Assembly (NCBI GenBank): GCA_964629085.1
Contig: CAZVPR010000001.1
Span: 26,517-90,516 of the forward strand
From: an uncultured Anaerolineales bacterium
GTDB taxonomy: Bacteria; Chloroflexota; Anaerolineae; Anaerolineales; UBA11858
Reading direction: 5' to 3'
DNA: 64,000 nucleotides
Positions 5,253-61,803 of the stretch are shown in pieces. Made by a program: the position numbers and the translations under genes. How positions within the stretch are numbered: the stretch's first letter is position 1; every line of letters begins with the position of its first letter. The notes beneath the pieces were generated by a model that saw nothing but the letters and a program-made list of their open reading frames with translations, ran no database searches and was not told where the DNA came from.

Positions 5253-6670
5253 GAGTGCGAATAGACGTTTGTGCTGGCTGTCAGCAAACCAAATACGATC
5301 CAGGCATTCGGCAAGGCAAAAGAATCCACCGAAAAAGCTACTCCAATAAATATGACCAGGGCCAAAATCCCTGCCTGGCCCCAATAGCGAATCTGTGGGT
5401 CGGGGCCGAGATAAAGATAGATCACACAACCAACCACGCCGACTAAAAAGGCCACATAGGCTGCCATGCCCAAGATTCCTGTTTCTGCCAAAATTCTGAC
5501 GAATAGATTTTTAGGCACGACCAACTGGTTTTTGCCTTCCTTGGGGACAAATTTGTACAGCAATTCCGGTGTAGGGTACAATGGCCGATCGGTCAATTCA
5601 TCTTCAAAATAAAAGACAAAATTTCCCAACCCTATTCCCAGCCAGGGATGCTGTTCATAGATCTGATAAGCCGTCTCCCAATAGATCATGCGCTGGCTAA
5701 AGGCGATGTAATGCAGATATGTACCAACGGCATTTTCATCCGTCCAATAGCGCCAAAGGCGAGCAAAGTATCTGTTCTGTGAACCAACAGCAATCATCAC
5801 AACCAGCAAGAGCACAACCACGGCCCCAACGAAGGCGATCCGTTTGATGAAATTGATCCATCTCTTGGAACCGGGTTTTCTTTTGCGCGGCCAGATCAAC
5901 AGCGCCAACACCAATTGCACGCCAATCAGCACATAGCCTGTGCGAGAATAGGTAAACACCAGCACACCCGAAGCATACAACAACAGCAGCACCTCAACTG
6001 TTAGTCGGTGCCAGCGCCAGCGAAACACGGTTGAATTTGACATCACTGCAGAAAACAACCAGGGCATGAACAAAAAAGTGATCTGTTCAGCGAACCAATT
6101 TGGCTCGTACGCCATCCCAGAGATGCGCGATTCGAATAGGCCGCGGACGGAGATGAAGCCCTGTAAATGCTCGACAGTATCAAACCATTCTGGTGAGTAA
6201 AACAGGATAAAACTGATATGGAGAGTGCCCCACAAAAGCGCAATCAGCAGCCCGGTGTACATCCAGCGCAAAGTGAAGTGCAAATCCGACTCCGTTTGGG
6301 GGGCTACTGCTACCGTGAGGTAAAAGGCTACGCCCATGGCCAGTGTCACCAACATGCGCAAGGAGCGCGCCGAAACCGAAATATTGATTTCAGGGTCGAT
6401 GCCTTGTGTGAAGGCAAAAATCGTACTTGCCAATGACAGCAAGATAAAAACCATCAACGGAATGACATTGCGGGGTATGGGCCTATTGAACAAATAGGGC
6501 AACGTTGTGATCAATAACAAAATGATCAAGGGGTACAAAGCTAACGGACGAACTTCCGTGCGCCCGCCAATACTGCCGGGAAAAAAGGGAAAGCTGGTCA
6601 CAGGCAAAGTAACCAGGAAAACGGCCCAGATGATTTTGCGGGCACGCTCTAGCCAGGACATCGACATCAA
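5249..6670 (-). CDS. O-antigen ligase/polymerase family (Wzy_C-type) membrane protein
   Basis: 473 aa and polytopic. The central region LLLYASGVLVFTYSRTGYVLIGVQLVLALLIW, plus a large loop and further TMs, is typical of Wzy_C proteins. There is a 4-nt overlap with the upstream gene. Confidence 0.7.
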   Translation of the reverse strand: MMSMSWLERARKIIWAVFLVTLPVTSFPFFPGSIGGRTEVRPLALYPLIILLLITTLPYLFNRPIPRNVIPLMVFILLSLASTIFAFTQGIDPEINISVSARSLRMLVTLAMGVAFYLTVAVAPQTESDLHFTLRWMYTGLLIALLWGTLHISFILFYSPEWFDTVEHLQGFISVRGLFESRISGMAYEPNWFAEQITFLFMPWLFSAVMSNSTVFRWRWHRLTVEVLLLLYASGVLVFTYSRTGYVLIGVQLVLALLIWPRKRKPGSKRWINFIKRIAFVGAVVVLLLVVMIAVGSQNRYFARLWRYWTDENAVGTYLHYIAFSQRMIYWETAYQIYEQHPWLGIGLGNFVFYFEDELTDRPLYPTPELLYKFVPKEGKNQLVVPKNLFVRILAETGILGMAAYVAFLVGVVGCVIYLYLGPDPQIRYWGQAGILALVIFIGVAFSVDSFALPNAWIVFGLLTASTNVYSHS

Positions 6671-7725
6671 TCTTCACCGCCCCAGGAAAGCCGCAAAATT
6701 TCTACGAACAAACCAATCAAAACCCCCAAGATTCCGCCCACCAACATCAGCGTACTCGAGGGGCGTACAATCTCCGTTTGAGGCTTGATCTCCTCCGGCA
6801 ACTCGATCTCCATAGCCGAGGACAGCGCCAGGCTTTTATCGATCTCCTCCTGGTATTGCCCTGAAAAAGAGTCAAATTGTGCCTGCATGGATTCGATTTG
6901 ATCTGGAAGCTCATCGAGCTCATTTTCTATCACCGAGAGGGCGCGCTCCACCCAAAGCAGGTATTCACTGGGCAAAGCATCGGGAGCGGGATAGGCTTCG
7001 AGTAAGGTTTGCCACCCTAGGTTCCAGTCAGAAGCTTGCGTCACCTGTGATAAAAGCTGCCAATGATTAAATGAGTCCCAAGGCTGGTCATCAACAGAGT
7101 TTTCCAAATCCAGCCATGCCCGCTCTAAATCTTCCTGCGCTTGTGTCACGGCTTGCAGACGTGTTTCCAAATCAGTCTGATGGTCCGCGATGGCTACCAT
7201 TTCCGTATCCAACACCACAACCTGGCGAGCATGCAAAATGGCTTCACTGACACGCTCATCGATGACCGCAGCCCATACCTGGACAGCTTGACTGGTCTGT
7301 TCTTTTTGGTTGAATTCCGCGCTCAAATGCCAGCGTCCGGCATTACGCCAGGAGCCCTGCAAGTTAAAATACAAATCTTCGACGGTTTTTGATTCCCAGT
7401 ATGCATCCAGGGTTTGCAAACGTTCCAATGTTTCTAACAAGAAATCATCGGTAAAGGCCAAAATATTGACCTGCTCCATCTGCCAATTTTTGTAATCATC
7501 CAGGCTGCTCAACTCGTCTTGAGCGACGTTGACAATATAGCGGTCCCGCGGGCCTCGGTAAGCGTTGATGCCCAGATACAAATCGATATGCGCACGATAC
7601 ATCGGCGGCCACAGAATGCTTGCTAACCATCCCAACAGCGCCCCCACCAAAAAACATGCGGCAACGAAATACCAGCGGTGCATTAAGTTGAGAATATAAT
7701 CGCGCAAACTCCACTCATTCGTCAT
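6667..7725 (-). CDS. Wzz-like polysaccharide co-polymerase (chain-length determinant architecture)
   Basis: 352 aa. TM1 is WYFVAACFLVGALLGWLASILW. A long helical, acidic extracytoplasmic region follows. A Pro-containing segment (ELPEEIKPQTEIVRPSS) sits immediately before TM2 (LMLVGGILGVLIGLFVEIL). This is the PCP-1 topology. Confidence 0.6.
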   Translation of the reverse strand: MTNEWSLRDYILNLMHRWYFVAACFLVGALLGWLASILWPPMYRAHIDLYLGINAYRGPRDRYIVNVAQDELSSLDDYKNWQMEQVNILAFTDDFLLETLERLQTLDAYWESKTVEDLYFNLQGSWRNAGRWHLSAEFNQKEQTSQAVQVWAAVIDERVSEAILHARQVVVLDTEMVAIADHQTDLETRLQAVTQAQEDLERAWLDLENSVDDQPWDSFNHWQLLSQVTQASDWNLGWQTLLEAYPAPDALPSEYLLWVERALSVIENELDELPDQIESMQAQFDSFSGQYQEEIDKSLALSSAMEIELPEEIKPQTEIVRPSSTLMLVGGILGVLIGLFVEILRLSWGGED

Positions 7726-7808
7726 ATATGATAACTAACTCCAAGCACCATATGTGCAAGACTTTATTTTCGTCAGCAAAACTTGATCAAAACAATTCAG
7801 ACACAACA

Positions 7809-7885
7809 ATCACGAATGGGAGCGAATGACACTAATTGCACGAATGTTTCTGGAAAAATTCGTGTCATTCGTAGTAATTCGTGAT
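7809..7885. repeat. Hairpin element copy 1 (CGAAT-word type); homologous to 43638..43715
   Basis: The left arm atcacgaatgggagcgaatgacac (7809-7832) pairs with the right arm gtgtcattcgtagtaattcgtgat (7862-7885), leaving a 29-nt loop. The first ~38 nt are nearly identical to the second copy. A conserved flank, gtcagcaaaacttga (7772-7786), is also shared. Confidence 0.8.
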
Positions 7886-7932
7886 AATAATTTGTTCAAG
7901 TTATTCTGGATATCTCCAGAATGTGCAAGATT

Positions 7933-9069
7933 TTACTCCATTTCATAAGATTCTAGCAGGTGATGGTATACGTCCAGGGTAGTCCGGTTAATTTTCTCGT
8001 GCGTAAACTTCTCCAACACAATTTGCCGGCCCCTAGCCCCCATTCGTTTTCGTAATTCTGGGTTTCGTACCAGTTTCTCGATAGCTTCTGCCAGCGCGGG
8101 AGCATCATTTTGGGGAATTAACAGGCCATTTCGATTGTGGTGAACAATCGCCCGACAACCGGGAACATCCGTCGCCACAATCGGGCGACCACAAGCAGCT
8201 GCCTCGATCAGGGTTGTTGGCAGGCCTTCGCCATACATTGTTGGCAAAACGACAATGTTACTCTGGCGGTAAACGCGCTCCATATCTTGCTGCCAGCCCC
8301 ACCATTCGATGATCTTCTGATTATGCCAGGCATTCAGGGTACCTTTTTCCAGGGTTTTTGGATTACCAGGATCAGGTTCTCCCACAAGAACCATGCGCAC
8401 ACCCACCCGTGCCTTTAGAAAACGAGCGGCATCAACAAACACACCCACCCCCTTATCCCAAAGAGTGCGAGCCGCCATCAAAATCACGACCTCCCCATCC
8501 GGTTCGGGAGTGGGCGAAAAGCGACGCGGATCAGCGCCGACGCCCTCGATCAACCAGGTTTGTTGAGGGTACACATACTTTTGCCTGAAGAAGTACTCTC
8601 GATCCGACTGGTTCTCAAAAATCACCGCCGAAGAGATTTTCCTCAAAACGCGCCGGTAAAATGGGTGGATCATTTTACGAATAATAACCGCTTTGGGATC
8701 AGTACTCGAAAAGACATACCCCAAACCCGAAATAGAATTTGCCACAAGCGCAATACCAGACAGGGCAGCAGCCAGCGAGCCATATAGGACGGCTTTTATC
8801 GTATGGTGATGAATGATATCTGGCTTTTCGCGCCGGTAAATCTGCCAAAGACGGAAAAATGAGCCAACTTCCAACCAGGGGGTAATACTTCTACGTTTCA
8901 AACGCCATTCATACCACTGAAAACCATCCTCCCGCAAGCGTTGCACAAATTTGCCATCTGGAGAGACCAAGACCACCTCAAATCCACGTGCGCGCAGATT
9001 GTGCATCAGGGCATAGCGGAAGTTGTATAAAAACCAATCAGTATTGGCAGCGAGGATGATTTTGGGCAT
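7933..9069 (-). CDS. GT4-family (GT-B) glycosyltransferase
   Basis: 378 aa. EX7E region: YGEGLPTTLIEAAACGRPIVATDVPGCRAIV. N-terminal Rossmann-like start: MPKIILAANTDWFLYNFR. Confidence 0.85.
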   Translation of the reverse strand: MPKIILAANTDWFLYNFRYALMHNLRARGFEVVLVSPDGKFVQRLREDGFQWYEWRLKRRSITPWLEVGSFFRLWQIYRREKPDIIHHHTIKAVLYGSLAAALSGIALVANSISGLGYVFSSTDPKAVIIRKMIHPFYRRVLRKISSAVIFENQSDREYFFRQKYVYPQQTWLIEGVGADPRRFSPTPEPDGEVVILMAARTLWDKGVGVFVDAARFLKARVGVRMVLVGEPDPGNPKTLEKGTLNAWHNQKIIEWWGWQQDMERVYRQSNIVVLPTMYGEGLPTTLIEAAACGRPIVATDVPGCRAIVHHNRNGLLIPQNDAPALAEAIEKLVRNPELRKRMGARGRQIVLEKFTHEKINRTTLDVYHHLLESYEME

Positions 9070-17538: not shown

Positions 17539-17744
17539 CAATTTATTCTAATCATTTCAGTGAAATCCGGCACCCTTCGATACGCACCGATTGCAATCAT
17601 CCATGTATTAGCATCTTGAGTAAGCCGAGGCGAAGCCAAGGCTGTATCGAAAGGTGCGGTGTTAATCAGGGTGCTCATTGCATTTTTAAACACAAAGTTC
17701 ATTGGCAATCGAACGGTACCATCCAATAATACCAATGAACTCAT
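17538..17744 (-). CDS. Hypothetical small protein (68 aa)
   Basis: The ORF fills the gap between the GT2 gene and the multidomain gene, and its stop overlaps the next ATG (TGATG). I see no obvious SD and no recognisable motif. Confidence 0.3.
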   Translation of the reverse strand: MSSLVLLDGTVRLPMNFVFKNAMSTLINTAPFDTALASPRLTQDANTWMIAIGAYRRVPDFTEMIRIN

Positions 17745-17766
17745 GTGAACTGAAGTCCAGTTTGTT

Positions 17767-18596: not shown

Positions 18597-18706
18597 ACCG
18601 CAAAGACGCGAAGGGCACAAAGCAAAGGAAATTCAGGGATAAATATTTCGATATTAGGAAGAGAGACTCTTTGCGGTGTATTGTGGTCTACTTAGCGATC
18701 TTCGCG
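18597..18706. repeat. Long-range inverted repeat / multi-stem element (CGAAG/CAAAG-word type)
   Basis: accgcaaagacgcgaag (18597-18613) matches the reverse complement of cttcgcgtcttcgcggt (18690-18706) at 16 of 17 positions. The 76-nt interior contains a small palindrome (aatat-ttcg-atatt) and further caaag/ctttg words. Confidence 0.7.
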
Positions 18707-18740
18707 TCTTCGCGGTTCAACCTAATACAGTACTTACCTA

Positions 18741-25618: not shown

Positions 25619-25623
25619 TGATG

Positions 25624-25677
25624 TCAGGTATCAGGTGCCAGGTTTCAGGTATCAGATGCGAATAAAAACCTGATACC
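25624..25677. repeat. Tandem heptamer array (YCAGGTN x4.5) with inverted partner (CAGGT-word type)
   Basis: tcaggta tcaggtg ccaggtt tcaggta tcag spans 25624-25655. cctgatacc (25669-25677) is the exact reverse complement of ggtatcagg within the array. Confidence 0.8.
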
Positions 25678-25690
25678 AAATAACCAATAC

Positions 25691-35136: not shown

Positions 35137-35243
35137 CTAACGCAACTCCTGCATACATATTTAGCAAATCAATATCAATTTGATTTGACTTATTTTCTAC
35201 TTTGAAGACCCAAACAACATTATCTTGGGACATCACTGACATG

Positions 35244-35266
35244 AAAAAAGCCGACCAGCAGCCGGC
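35244..35266 (-). terminator. Candidate intrinsic terminator after the usp/TauE operon
   Basis: Minus strand: gccggc-tgctg-gtcggc (6-bp stem including one G.U pair) followed by tttttt. It lies about 85 nt downstream of the usp stop. Confidence 0.45.
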
Positions 35267-35349
35267 GACCTGGAATCATAACATGAAATTGATAATTATG
35301 CCGTTATTTTCGGTCACACTGATCACAATTATCCTGTAGCAATAATAGA

Positions 35350-43597: not shown

Positions 43598-43637
43598 AAA
43601 ATTTATATTTTGTATTGGTCAGCGAAACTTGAATAAA

Positions 43638-43715
43638 ATCACGAATAGGAGCGAATGACACAAATTGCACGAACATTTTTCAAGGTGTCATTGGTGAAAT
43701 TCGTTGAATCGTGAT
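43638..43715. repeat. Hairpin element copy 2 (CGAAT-word type); homologous to 7809..7885
   Basis: atcacgaataggagcgaatgacac (43638-43661) ... gtgtcattggtgaaattcgttgaatcgtgat (43685-43715). The flank gtcagcgaaacttga (43618-43632) matches 7772-7786 at 14 of 15 positions. Confidence 0.8.
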
Positions 43716-43773
43716 TTAAGATTTGTTTATGCTTTTCTTGATCACCACAAGAATTTGTGAATATTTTTTTATC

Positions 43774-54095: not shown

Positions 54096-54150
54096 GACAG
54101 AAGACGGATGACGGGAATTTCGCTCGGTCCCCGGTCATCGGTCTTCTGTC
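54096..54150. repeat. Long near-perfect hairpin (about 20-bp stem) spanning the stop codon of the upstream methyltransferase gene
   Basis: gacagaagacggatgacggg (54096-54115) matches the reverse complement of cccggtcatcggtcttctgtc (54130-54150) with only one mismatch (g/c). The loop is about 14 nt. No U-run follows on either strand. Confidence 0.75.
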
Positions 54151-56097: not shown

Positions 56098-56103
56098 CTA
56101 TAT

Positions 56104-56408
56104 AGTGCGGAGTGCGAAGTACTGTGTGTGAAGATCAACTCTTTTTTAGTGATTTTTTAAAGGCGCTGACCATGGCTTTGACTTAATTAGCCTGGTTGTA
56201 ATTGCTTTCAAAGGTTCTTCTTCGATATATCCAACATCAAAAATTGCATAAAGCAGTGATTGAACTTCAACGGCAGAACGACGAGAAAAGCCCAAAAACC
56301 TGGCAAACTCGGGTTTGGATTAACAATCGAAACCTTCAACGCCATTCATCCACCTGAAACCTGACACTTGCTTCTAGATACCCGCAACCACCCCGCACAT
56401 CGCACTTC
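56104..56408. repeat. Inverted GTGCG-word arms enclosing the four-helix-bundle gene remnant
   Basis: The + strand has agtgcggagtgcgaagtac (56104-56122) and ccgcacatcgcacttc (56393-56408). That is two GTGCG words on one side and two CGCAC words on the other. The interior also carries cacctgaaacctgacac (56351-56367), which shares a 12-mer with the reverse complement of the 25624-25655 array. Confidence 0.6.
56146..56319 (-). pseudogene. C-terminal fragment of a four-helix-bundle protein (23S rRNA intervening-sequence protein family)
   Basis: My minus-strand translation is SKPEFARFLGFSRRSAVEVQSLLYAIFDVGYIEEEPLKAITTRLIKSKPWSAPLKNH*. An in-frame TAA lies immediately upstream and there is no start codon. 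The pattern EF.RFL..S..S..E..S.L..A.D.GYI matches my recollection of the family's C-terminal half. Confidence 0.55.
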
Positions 56409-56418
56409 TCACATTGTT

Positions 56419-57501: not shown

Positions 57502-57544
57502 TGGGCACTCCTTTTCGATATGTCCTTAGGAGAAACAGAAATGT

Positions 57545-57603
57545 GGAACCACGAAGACACAAAGACACTAAGTTTTTTCGACATTGCACCTTCCCTTCGT
57601 GCC
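57545..57603. repeat. Word-repeat region with short stem (CGAAG/GACAC-word type)
   Basis: ggaaccacgaagacacaaagacac (57545-57568). cacgaag (57550-56) pairs with cttcgtg (57595-601). Further cgaag words start at 57612 and 57642. Confidence 0.4.
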
Positions 57604-57648
57604 TGCCCCACCGAAGGTGTGCTCGTCTGCGACGTGCACATCGAAGAT

Positions 57649-57681
57649 GGCCCTACGGGCAACGGCAAGGGCCGCTTTTGG
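57649..57681 (+). terminator. Plus-strand hairpin followed by a short T-run, terminator-like, antisense to the gene flow
   Basis: ggccct-acgggcaacggca-agggcc (6-bp stem, 13-nt loop), then gcttttgg. No plus-strand CDS lies upstream. Confidence 0.25.
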
Positions 57682-57714
57682 CGTGAGTCTTAGTGGTGGA
57701 TAGTAATCAACTGA

Positions 57715-60721: not shown

Positions 60722-60731
60722 GTTTCACCTC

Positions 60732-60813
60732 GTGTACCTGTCCGCCTGTTTTTCTCCTGAATACAGGTAAACAGGTACACAAGGTAAATTTGCATGTTAT
60801 GTTAATTTACCTT
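60732..60813. repeat. Two adjacent hairpins between pseB and the reductase gene (ACAGG-word type plus a 10-bp perfect palindrome)
   Basis: Hairpin 1: gtgtacctgtccgcctgt (60732-49) pairs with acaggtaaacaggtacac (60763-80). Hairpin 2: aaggtaaatt (60781-90) pairs with aatttacctt (60804-13) perfectly, with a 13-nt loop. Its right arm encodes the last pseB codons. Confidence 0.75.
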
Positions 60814-61803
60814 GTGCGTAGGCTTCTTCAAAAGGAGCCACGATCTTTTTAATCTGTTCGACGTTGAGCCATTCGGTGTTCTCGGCGCTGGAGTAACGAA
60901 AACCATCTTCGACAGGCTTACCTTGTTCTGGCCAGGTTCCACCAAACCAGAATGCTTCCACAGGTTGGACCACGTACATATCATCCAATTCAACGGTAGA
61001 GCGCGACTCATCGCGCGAAATCAACATCTCGTGGAGCTTTTCACCGGGCCGAATGCCGATAAATTTCATTTCTGAATCGGGCGCAATCGCTTTGGCCAGA
61101 TCGACAACATTCATACTGGGAATCTTGGGAACGAAGACTTCACCGCCCTTCATCTGTTCGATGCTGCGAATGACAAAGCGTACACCTTGATCTAGAGAAA
61201 GCCAAAATCGGGTCATGCGTTCGTCGGTGATGGTCAGAACACCGCTGTCACGCTGACGCAGAAAGACAGGCACAACGCTGCCGCGACTGCCGACAACATT
61301 GCCATATCGCACGCAACTCATGCGAGGCTCTTTACCACCAGCATAGGAGTTACTTTGAACAACCAGTTTTTCTGCTGCCAATTTCGTAGCCCCATAAAGA
61401 TTGACCGGGTTGACGGCTTTGTCGGTGCTCAATGCCAAAACCTTTTTGACTCCGGTATCCAAGGCGGCATCCACAACATTGCTGCTACCCAGGATATTGG
61501 TCTTGATGGCTTCCATGGGGTTGTATTCGCATGCCGGCACCTGTTTCAAAGCCGCAGCATGGACTGCAATGTCCACACCGCGCATAGCTCTTTTCATACG
61601 CTCCAGATCGCGCACATCACCAATAAAGAAGCGCAAGTTCGGGTAATCAAAACCAGCTGCTTTCATTTCATGTTGCTTTAATTCATCACGGCTGTAAACA
61701 ATCACTTTCGCCGGTTGATACTCTTTCAAAAGAATGCTGATGAATTTTTTTCCAAAGGAACCCGTTCCACCGGTTACGAGGACAACTTGATCTTTCCAAT
61801 TCA
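60797..61803 (-). CDS. pseB: UDP-N-acetylglucosamine 4,6-dehydratase (inverting), PseB/FlaA1 type
   Basis: The track ORF starts at 61864. I prefer ATG 61803 (MNWKDQVVLVTGGTGSFGKK), which has a GGAGGA RBS 5 nt upstream. There are long stretches of near-identity, by recollection, to Helicobacter PseB: VYSRDELKQHEM, FFIGDVRDLERM, HAAALKQVP..EYNP.E.IKTNI.G, LYGATKL, RYGNVVGSRGSVVP, RMTRFW, GGE.FVPKIPSM, IGIRPGEKLHE. Confidence 0.9.

Follow-up and report, generated by a model that had tools for sequence, protein, structure and literature searches.

Repetitive extragenic palindromic (REP) sequences, miniature inverted-repeat transposable elements (MITEs), short tandemly repeated repetitive (STRR) sequences and enterobacterial repetitive intergenic consensus (ERIC) sequences are intergenic repeat families of bacteria that, to our knowledge, are each restricted to a narrow lineage; the same lineage restriction applies, as far as we know, to the individual MITE families. 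MITEs, for example the Correia elements of Neisseria, are small, non-coding, intergenic units with long inverted ends that are co-transcribed when they lie within an operon. In T4-type phages, promoter-stem-loop cassette boundaries (PeSLs) flank shuffled genes. REP elements, and the REPINs that consist of two inverted REPs, are described as being mobilised by RAYT transposases (PMC3116915, PMC3733652), each REP being a small G+C-rich palindrome tagged by GTAG or CGTC according to the second of these sources (PMC3733652). The STRR hairpins of cyanobacteria are made of tandem short repeats in intercistronic spacers, for instance between hupS and hupL, and have been proposed to act in transcript stability and translational coupling (PMC2670836). 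Here we analyse a hairpin-forming element (copy A) in a 64-kb stretch of DNA from an uncultured Anaerolineales bacterium (contig CAZVPR010000001.1; this whole stretch is called the window), the arms of which are tandem arrays of the 7-nt word CACGAAT. Hairpins built from this module make up a family of non-coding DNA palindromes that is very widespread and apparently undescribed. An initial annotation of the window had interpreted copy A as a mobile, MITE-like element flanked by a 15-bp target duplication and inserting between the genes of long operons.

The window contains a long minus-strand array of polysaccharide genes and has a G+C content of 47.7%; for two of the proteins encoded in it, homologues bear the names of Anaerolineales and Chloroflexota metagenome-assembled genomes, in line with the placement of the host. 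Copy A is located in site A, the whole 207-nt spacer (7726..7932, minus strand) delimited by open reading frames (ORFs), those of a GT4 gene (7933-9069, minus strand) and of the gene that follows it, which encodes a Wzz-like protein of 352 amino acids (6667-7725, minus strand, ATG at 7725). The core of copy A is a 77-nt hairpin (7809..7885), with 29-nt arms at 7809-7837 and 7857-7885 that are 79% complementary. Four modules ending in CGAAT start at positions 7813, 7823, 7832 and 7841 and three beginning with ATTCG at 7858, 7867 and 7877, which amounts to a spacing of 10-9-9 and 9-10 nt, respectively. The first arm reads ATCACGAAT-GGGAGCGAAT-GACACTAAT-TGCACGAAT, the mirrored arm ATTCGTGTC-ATTCGTAGTA-ATTCGTGAT; the arms are tandem direct repeats and not self-complementary, and together with the loop (7807-7887) they have a G+C content of 38%. 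A 24-mer core is present twice, with 0.00 occurrences expected. The hairpin is surrounded by an outer 18-nt inverted repeat that had gone unnoticed before, the left arm of which (CAGCAAAACTTGATCAAA, 7774..7791) overlaps the motif GTCAGCAAAACTTGA (7772-7786), while the right arm (TTTGTTCAAGTTATTCTG, 7891..7908) is 83% complementary to the left one. With the outer repeat and the 29-nt module arms, copy A has inverted-repeat ends as MITEs do.

Further outwards, the element is bracketed by a 15-nt direct repeat. One copy, ATGTGCAAGACTTTA (7752..7766, minus strand), is followed after 26 nt by the start codon of the 352-aa gene (about 25 nt in the initial annotation); the other, ATGTGCAAGATTTTA (7921..7935, minus strand; TAAAATCTTGCACAT in mRNA sense), includes the TAA stop codon of the GT4 gene. 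The two are identical at 14 of the 15 positions, their local-alignment score of 25 compares with a shuffle mean of 13.5 +/- 2.3 (P ~0.001), and the repeat is longer than those in all of the approximately 345 null flank pairs taken from the family. Removal of the insert and one repeat would leave a spacer of 38 nt (about 40 nt in the initial annotation); the median intergenic gap in the gene array is around 10 nt. After the GT4 stop codon, an 8-bp perfect palindrome (7903..7922, minus strand; arms 7903-7910 and 7915-7922; ATTCTGGA-GATA-TCCAGAAT in mRNA sense) can form a small hairpin. The repeats, the 77-nt hairpin, the palindrome and the motif at 7772-7786 had all been correctly located by the initial annotation; the repeat, hairpin and palindrome, as well as the second copy, go beyond what chance would give. 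The 210-nt region folds with z-scores of -3.2 (minus strand) and -3.75 (plus strand) relative to shuffled sequences.

A second module hairpin, copy B (43636..43717), lies in site B, a 176-nt spacer (43598..43773, minus strand, from the ORFs) between a GT2 gene (319 aa) and a gene for a 476-aa protein. One of its arms is intact and the other degenerate, with modules at 43642/43652/43661/43670 and 43690/43699/43707 and a spacing of 10-9-9 and 9-8 nt. The motif GTCAGCGAAACTTGA (43618..43632) is the counterpart of GTCAGCAAAACTTGA in copy A. Apart from the CACGAAT word, copies A and B share the variable spacers between the modules as well as this 15-nt flanking motif. The presence of a hairpin and motif near 43618 had been recognised earlier; the identity of about 90% given then does not hold over the whole unit, as it is 86% over aligned columns (82/95) and 72% relative to the longer copy, with a 17-nt indel, and near-identity is confined to one arm (37 nt, 95%). 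No duplication flanks copy B.

To belong to the family, a hairpin needs three or more tandem CGAAT-terminated modules at intervals of 9-10 nt in one arm and their mirror image in the other, a build that copies A and B both have. The module consensus across the family is T-R-A-C-A-CGAAT, with a spacing of 9 nt in 66% and 10 nt in 24%. A covariance model (R1), made from eight hairpins of other organisms and no window sequence, yields just two strong matches in the 64 kb, at 7807-7887 (copy A; 42.6 bits, E = 2.5e-9) and 43636-43717 (copy B; 33.4 bits, E = 1e-6); the next-best match, at 18597-18716, is weak (18.6 bits, E = 0.015). In GTDB genomes, the three-module pattern occurs at at least 120 loci, with about 17 expected by chance according to our estimate. 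Among the GTDB matches listed, at least 198 arrays of three or more modules were counted, as opposed to none in shuffled sequences, and the record titles name about 18 phyla, including Chloroflexota, Planctomycetota, Acidobacteriota, Desulfobacterota, Pseudomonadota, Bacteroidota, Verrucomicrobiota, Gemmatimonadota, Nitrospirota and Calditrichota. Two archaeal bins are also among these matches, both cases being on short contigs and to be regarded with caution. Mis-binning cannot explain the spread, since several matches come from contigs of megabase size or from the genomes of isolates, for example Botrimarina colliarenosi Pla108.

Hairpins from four Anaerolineales or Chloroflexi bins (L025, L080, L096 and L116) share the outline of copy A, running from ATCACGAAT to ATTCGTGAT over a length of 72-77 nt. 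The 22-mer core is found in five metagenome contigs, CACGAATRGGAGCGAATGACAC recurring in three unrelated ones, and has no exact match in the GTDB representative genomes, from which the source species is therefore absent. In Rfam, no family reaches its gathering score in the window, only chance-level matches (E above 1) occur at the element, and no match overlaps the hairpins in 18 family loci. A BLAST search with a canonical copy against PLSDB plasmids and INPHARED (GenBank) phages gave no match. The CACGAAT-array sequence was not found printed in the searchable literature, where a sequence search returned unrelated primers, and a concept-based search returned only papers on REP, MITE and STRR elements, none of them with the CACGAAT word.

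Comparison of orthologous junctions showed that units of the family are gained and lost. Sixteen metagenome contigs of the same strain (including L001-L006) match the window at 99.98-100% identity, which makes them uninformative. For more distant relatives, percentages are amino-acid identities of the 352-aa protein, encoded on the downstream side of site A. The window has a filled site A, and so do L137 and L138 (86%), L139 (84%; the contig starts inside the element) and L145 (58%). The site is empty in L140 (74%), where the spacer is 51 nt long, contains no hairpin and has one copy of the repeat motif; an empty orthologous site, for which the initial annotation had suggested looking, is thereby available. 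In two relatives at 68% (P0004 and P0005), the site-A gaps are 351 and 761 nt long, only the gap lengths being considered here. At site B, only the window has a hairpin. The equivalent position is occupied by an intact gene for a SAM-dependent methyltransferase (PF13489, 282-285 aa) in L142 (9124-9972) and L143 (9134-9991), and by a 3' remnant of the methyltransferase gene in the closest relative, L141 (5215-5415). Since only the window is filled and the relatives carry the gene or its remnant, copy B is a gain specific to the window's lineage.

Some further features of these junctions were observed. The site-A spacer of L145 (L145:5606-6000, from the Anaerolineales metagenome-assembled genome GCA_016783125.1) is 395 nt long and has its CACGAAT hairpin nested in a hairpin of GCGCTAAG/GCGCAAAG modules; it also contains a run of GCGAAC/CGAAC units, and a pair of PIN-domain genes is inserted upstream of the ABC-2 gene at this locus. 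Small hairpins after the GT4 stop codon are present in three lineages (window 7903-7922, L140:2440-2468 and L145:5612-5637) and disrupted in L137. Their base is constant (CATTC...GAATG) and the distal stem varies (TGGA/TCCA, GCGTAC/GTACGC and TGTA/TACG), differences that look like compensatory change. Two independent assemblies (L139:1 and L144:1) break at site A, no more than about 120 nt before the start of the 352-aa gene, as a repeat or palindrome would cause.

Copy A is, to judge by sequence conservation, an old and now constrained feature of the operon and not a recent insertion. Between the window and L137, identity at 4-fold degenerate sites of the flanking genes is 57%, compared with 85% for the site-A spacer (175/205, P = 6e-18) and 93.5% for the copy A hairpin (72/77, P = 1e-12). 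All five substitutions in the hairpin fall outside the 42 module-core positions (P = 0.016), and the loop of L137 has gained a 10-nt insertion that holds a new ACGAA unit. Other large spacers of the window are likewise conserved.

The 15-nt direct repeat is paired in L137 and, more weakly, in L145, and single in the hairpin-less L140; the copy at the GT4 stop codon (7921-7935) is kept in all three. Pairing thus tracks the presence of the hairpin, which fits an origin at insertion. The two copies are 93% alike, where about 57% at most would be expected had they been neutral since the window and L137 separated, so that both must be under selection or subject to conversion. The initial annotation had taken the repeat for a target duplication, which is not supported in that form: it does not abut the element, both copies are retained in orthologues and nothing comparable is seen elsewhere in the family. 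A simple target-duplication relic is unlikely, given that duplications in the family are of 5 bp, the repeat is non-abutting and no family trait, and its copies are overly alike. The repeat probably arose together with the insertion, and its two copies would have persisted because of constraint on the places they occupy, the stop codon in one case and the stretch preceding the ribosome-binding site in the other. Long flanking repeats, considered as a possible trait of the family, were rejected as such.

The gene contexts of family loci, which rest on crude ORF calls, show no functional theme. Among the matches listed, about 90% of the arrays are intergenic; an inverted partner is present within 260 nt for 76 of 130 arrays, with loops of 3 to 245 nt, and the 93 classifiable contexts are tandem (56), convergent (22) or divergent (15). 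Median distances are 56 nt to gene 3' ends versus 133 nt to 5' ends. The neighbours are unrelated housekeeping genes: 150 flanking ORFs matched 203 Pfam families without enrichment and with one transposase, and an association of the family with particular genes was therefore rejected. The preference for long operons that had been proposed for the element does not extend to the family, the copies of which lie beside these housekeeping genes in all three orientations. Some subfamilies have flanking A-runs and T-runs. T-runs do not differ between the two sides and are not biased to the downstream side of the transcript, and the fold energies of sense and antisense strands do not differ (n = 34, P = 0.88); with no transcribed-strand bias, the family as a class does not consist of terminators.

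Part of the family transposes. A proteobacterial subfamily has near-identical copies at different loci, with long terminal inverted repeats and the ends CCTGAAAAAAGCG...TTTTTAGG; near-identical 138-nt copies occur at different loci of one genome (L102a and L076). Perfect 5-bp duplications are found at the ends of the terminal inverted repeats (TTAAA in L102a, GTTAT in L076 and ATGAA in L050b). The copies with these duplications are true MITEs. In other members, flanking direct repeats are at chance level, except for tandem duplications of whole units (L021, L033, L043 and L063). The flanking duplications that the initial annotation had wanted checked in further copies are therefore present in the proteobacterial subfamily, as 5-bp repeats, and absent from the Anaerolineales type. 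Long one-armed arrays with higher-order repeats were also encountered (L041, L079, L088 and L101). Pairs of arrays 0.5-4 kb apart hold ordinary or phage accessory genes and no transposase, and a composite transposon was rejected. In one locus (L008:4740-4761), a half array (ACACGACACTAATACACGAATAGGAGCGAATGACACGAAT) lies in frame within an ORF that we take, from reading the translation, to encode a YchF-like GTPase; it would add the peptide HDTNTRIGANDTNT, recalling the in-frame insertions of Rickettsia palindromic elements.

Arrays are also frequent in viral contigs, where three consecutive CACGAAT words are present in at least 120 contigs versus 11 for the reversed word. This count includes some false members, coding tandem repeats being among the three-word matches (L202:1810-2090, L183 and L159); the GGCACGAAT repeats of L202, for example, read Gly-Thr-Asn, are collagen-like and are probably unrelated to the hairpin family. 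Viral arrays are mostly one-armed, with a partner in 24 of 138 among the matches listed. Between some arrays and their inverted partners lie single genes (L150:5849-6667, L178:7351-8368, L209:815-2114 and L241:3909-6078), so that a whole gene can serve as the loop. One-armed arrays in a single orientation recur in L153 (at 3683, 6137 and 6451) and in L163 (five sites); those of L153 immediately precede the ribosome-binding sites of consecutive genes and have a conserved GGGGAACCGGCGAGA in front of them. The recurring arrays of these two contigs look like a repeated regulatory site.

Copy A belongs to a dispersed, cross-phylum family of non-coding palindromic repeats. We lean, with modest confidence, towards a MITE- or REP-like repeat that is moved in trans and may now tune expression at site A. 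An ancestor of the window's lineage would have acquired copy A in the spacer between the GT4 and wzz-like genes; copy B arose later, in the window's lineage only, at a place where relatives keep a methyltransferase gene. The 7-nt word, which recurs at intervals of roughly one helical turn and has its mirror image on the other arm, could form a multi-site platform for a DNA-binding protein, as transposon ends do, and an enzyme acting in trans may move the unit in the manner of MITEs. Both copies would be part of the transcript of the long minus-strand polysaccharide operon. Its nested stems could allow the 169-nt insert of copy A to be folded away, bringing the GT4 stop codon near the ribosome-binding site of the next gene, and the hairpin might block 3'-exonucleases or be a site for a double-strand RNase, setting the relative expression of upstream and downstream genes. 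By analogy with what has been proposed for STRR at hupS-hupL, the nested stems of site A may couple or tune expression across the junction.

The element shares with MITEs the small size, the lack of coding capacity, the inverted ends and the intergenic position, and, given that it would be co-transcribed, also the operon setting; sites A and B provide filled and empty orthologous sites, as found for MITEs, and one CACGAAT subfamily has perfect 5-bp target duplications. Unlike in MITEs, the inverted ends are tandem arrays of a 7-nt word, no short target duplication flanks hairpins of the window type, the family loci yielded no parent insertion sequence, and the word is present in genomes labelled as about 18 phyla. 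With REPs and REPINs (PMC3116915, PMC3733652) the family has in common that dispersed intergenic palindromes form hairpins of about 70-100 nt in transcribed spacers, without target duplications, and persist for long at orthologous sites, but CACGAAT arms are non-palindromic, A+T-rich tandem arrays without a GTAG or CGTC tag, unlike the G+C-rich palindromes of 20-40 nt that make up REP arms. The STRR hairpins resemble it in being tandem short repeats able to fold in intercistronic spacers; they differ in having 7-bp units of another sequence and in occurring in filamentous cyanobacteria, whereas the CACGAAT period is 9-10 nt and the family is found in Chloroflexota and many other phyla. Of the earlier description as a mobile MITE-like element, what stands is a non-coding, structured, repeated, intergenic unit with filled and empty junctions and a subfamily with MITE features; the 15-bp repeat is unlikely to be a plain target duplication.

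Several observations weigh against the favoured reading. Family loci amounting to about 1.9 Mb contained no transposase flanked by arrays, nor any enzyme or autonomous parent, and the genes bracketed by arrays in viral contigs (an N6/N4 DNA methylase, a radical-SAM-like protein and two of unknown family) include no transposase either. The Anaerolineales-type hairpins, including those of the window, have no short target duplication, and gaps of 7 and 12 nt separate the 15-nt repeat of copy A from the outer inverted repeat. Beyond the two copies in 64 kb, none is present elsewhere in about 130 kb from relatives, and a high genome copy number is not supported. The empty site of L140 could be a loss and not the ancestral state, as L145 is filled and the 68% relatives have long gaps. 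The visible arm of L139 is far more diverged, implying that constraint is not uniform across lineages. Conservation that so clearly exceeds neutral expectation is easier to reconcile with regulation by the host than with a selfish element, and a non-mobile cis-regulatory element of the host, in which the arrays are operator-like sites for a widespread DNA- or RNA-binding protein and are copied by ordinary duplication or recombination, is a serious if doubtful alternative. It would account for the conservation of the site-A spacer and hairpin, for the retention of both direct-repeat copies in orthologues, for module cores better conserved than the spacers between them, for the similar conservation of other large spacers in the window, and for viral arrays that are mostly one-armed and of which several (L153 and L163) sit right before the ribosome-binding sites of consecutive genes. 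It has more difficulty with copies whose neighbours are unrelated housekeeping genes, whether these are tandem, convergent or divergent, with a site B that is filled in the window's lineage only, and with the 5-bp target duplications of the proteobacterial subfamily, which denote real transposition; no candidate regulator was identified.

We consider it unlikely that the word arrays are recognition sites of a widely transferred DNA-binding or recombination system, perhaps phage-borne, that moves hairpins without cargo as well as single genes bracketed by arrays across phyla, the operon hairpins being captured copies that control expression. If this were true, the arrays would be a cassette-boundary system with a role like that of integron attC sites, to which they are unrelated in sequence. 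Inverted CACGAAT arrays that bracket single accessory genes in viral contigs, such as the one for a DNA methylase, are reminiscent of PeSLs, a lead only; there is no sequence relation and, unlike PeSLs, the window copies gave no promoter in consensus scans. Local generation, with modules growing by replication slippage and being mirrored by template switching, as proposed for cyanobacterial STRR hairpins, appears decidedly unlikely. What speaks for it, and at the same time against a mobile repeat, are hairpins of the same build with other words at 18597-18716, 25619-25690, 54096-54150, 57502-57714 and 60724-60816 of the window, which fit local generation as well as transposition. The one-armed higher-order arrays, the whole-unit tandem duplications, the lack of target duplication in the Anaerolineales type and the loop insertion of L137 with its new ACGAA unit also agree with it. 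Independent growth would not give two copies sharing variable spacers, a 15-nt flanking motif and 86% identity, nor would one expect from it the 22-mer in three unrelated metagenome contigs, the near-identical 138-nt copies at separate loci of one genome, or a CACGAAT word more than ten times commoner in viral contigs than its reversed control. That copy A is an intrinsic (Rho-independent) terminator or an attenuator within its operon is very improbable. A stable hairpin between cistrons (about -25 kcal/mol on the mRNA strand for copy A), the greater proximity of family copies to gene 3' ends and the A-runs and T-runs of some subfamilies would suit it; a consensus scan gave nothing terminator-like at copy A or copy B, the stem is not followed by a U-tract, T-runs and fold energy have no transcript-strand bias, and 15 of the 93 classifiable copies lie between divergent genes. 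A terminator or promoter was rejected, as consensus scans gave nothing relevant on the minus strand. An anti-Shine-Dalgarno role of the CUCC internal loop was dropped, since the motif does not keep a constant orientation to transcription (L007 versus the window).

The sharing of a word across phyla implies either a very widespread trans-acting partner or a broad-host-range vehicle, and either would be worth finding. In genome annotation, CACGAAT elements account for oversized spacers within operons, and they are probably also responsible for contig breaks, two assemblies ending at site A. In the window, the structured and conserved insert of site A lies in a polysaccharide operon, with the glycosyltransferase genes on one side of it and the genes for chain length and polymerase on the other. 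The gene array as a whole encodes glycosyltransferases, an ABC-2 exporter, Wzy, NeuB, a sulfotransferase, Sat/CysC and LytR-CpsA-Psr proteins.

Module hairpins with words other than CACGAAT are present in six gaps of the window. The one at 18597..18716, in another spacer, has the same architecture and is composed of CGCGAAG/CACAAAG modules; the others are at 25619-25690, 54096-54150, 56098-56418, 57502-57714 and 60724-60816, and the further words, in modules of 7-10 nt, are NACCTGA, GACGGAT, GTGCGR, CACGAAG/CACTAAG and ACAGGTA. Their occurrence in several gaps indicates that module-built arms are general in the larger spacers of this genome. In the spacer upstream of the Sat/CysC gene (35137-35349), a conserved terminator-like hairpin with a T-run (GGTCGCCGGCTGCTGGTCGGCTTTTTT), common to L141, suggests a transcription-unit break inside the gene array. 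The 225-nt spacer between the genes for a 256-aa GT2 and a 1216-aa protein (17542-17766) has a very stable fold (-73.6 kcal/mol) and no Rfam match at the gathering score; it is 90% identical to L137:1-198, compared with 57% at 4-fold sites, and may represent a conserved leader with structure or a small RNA.

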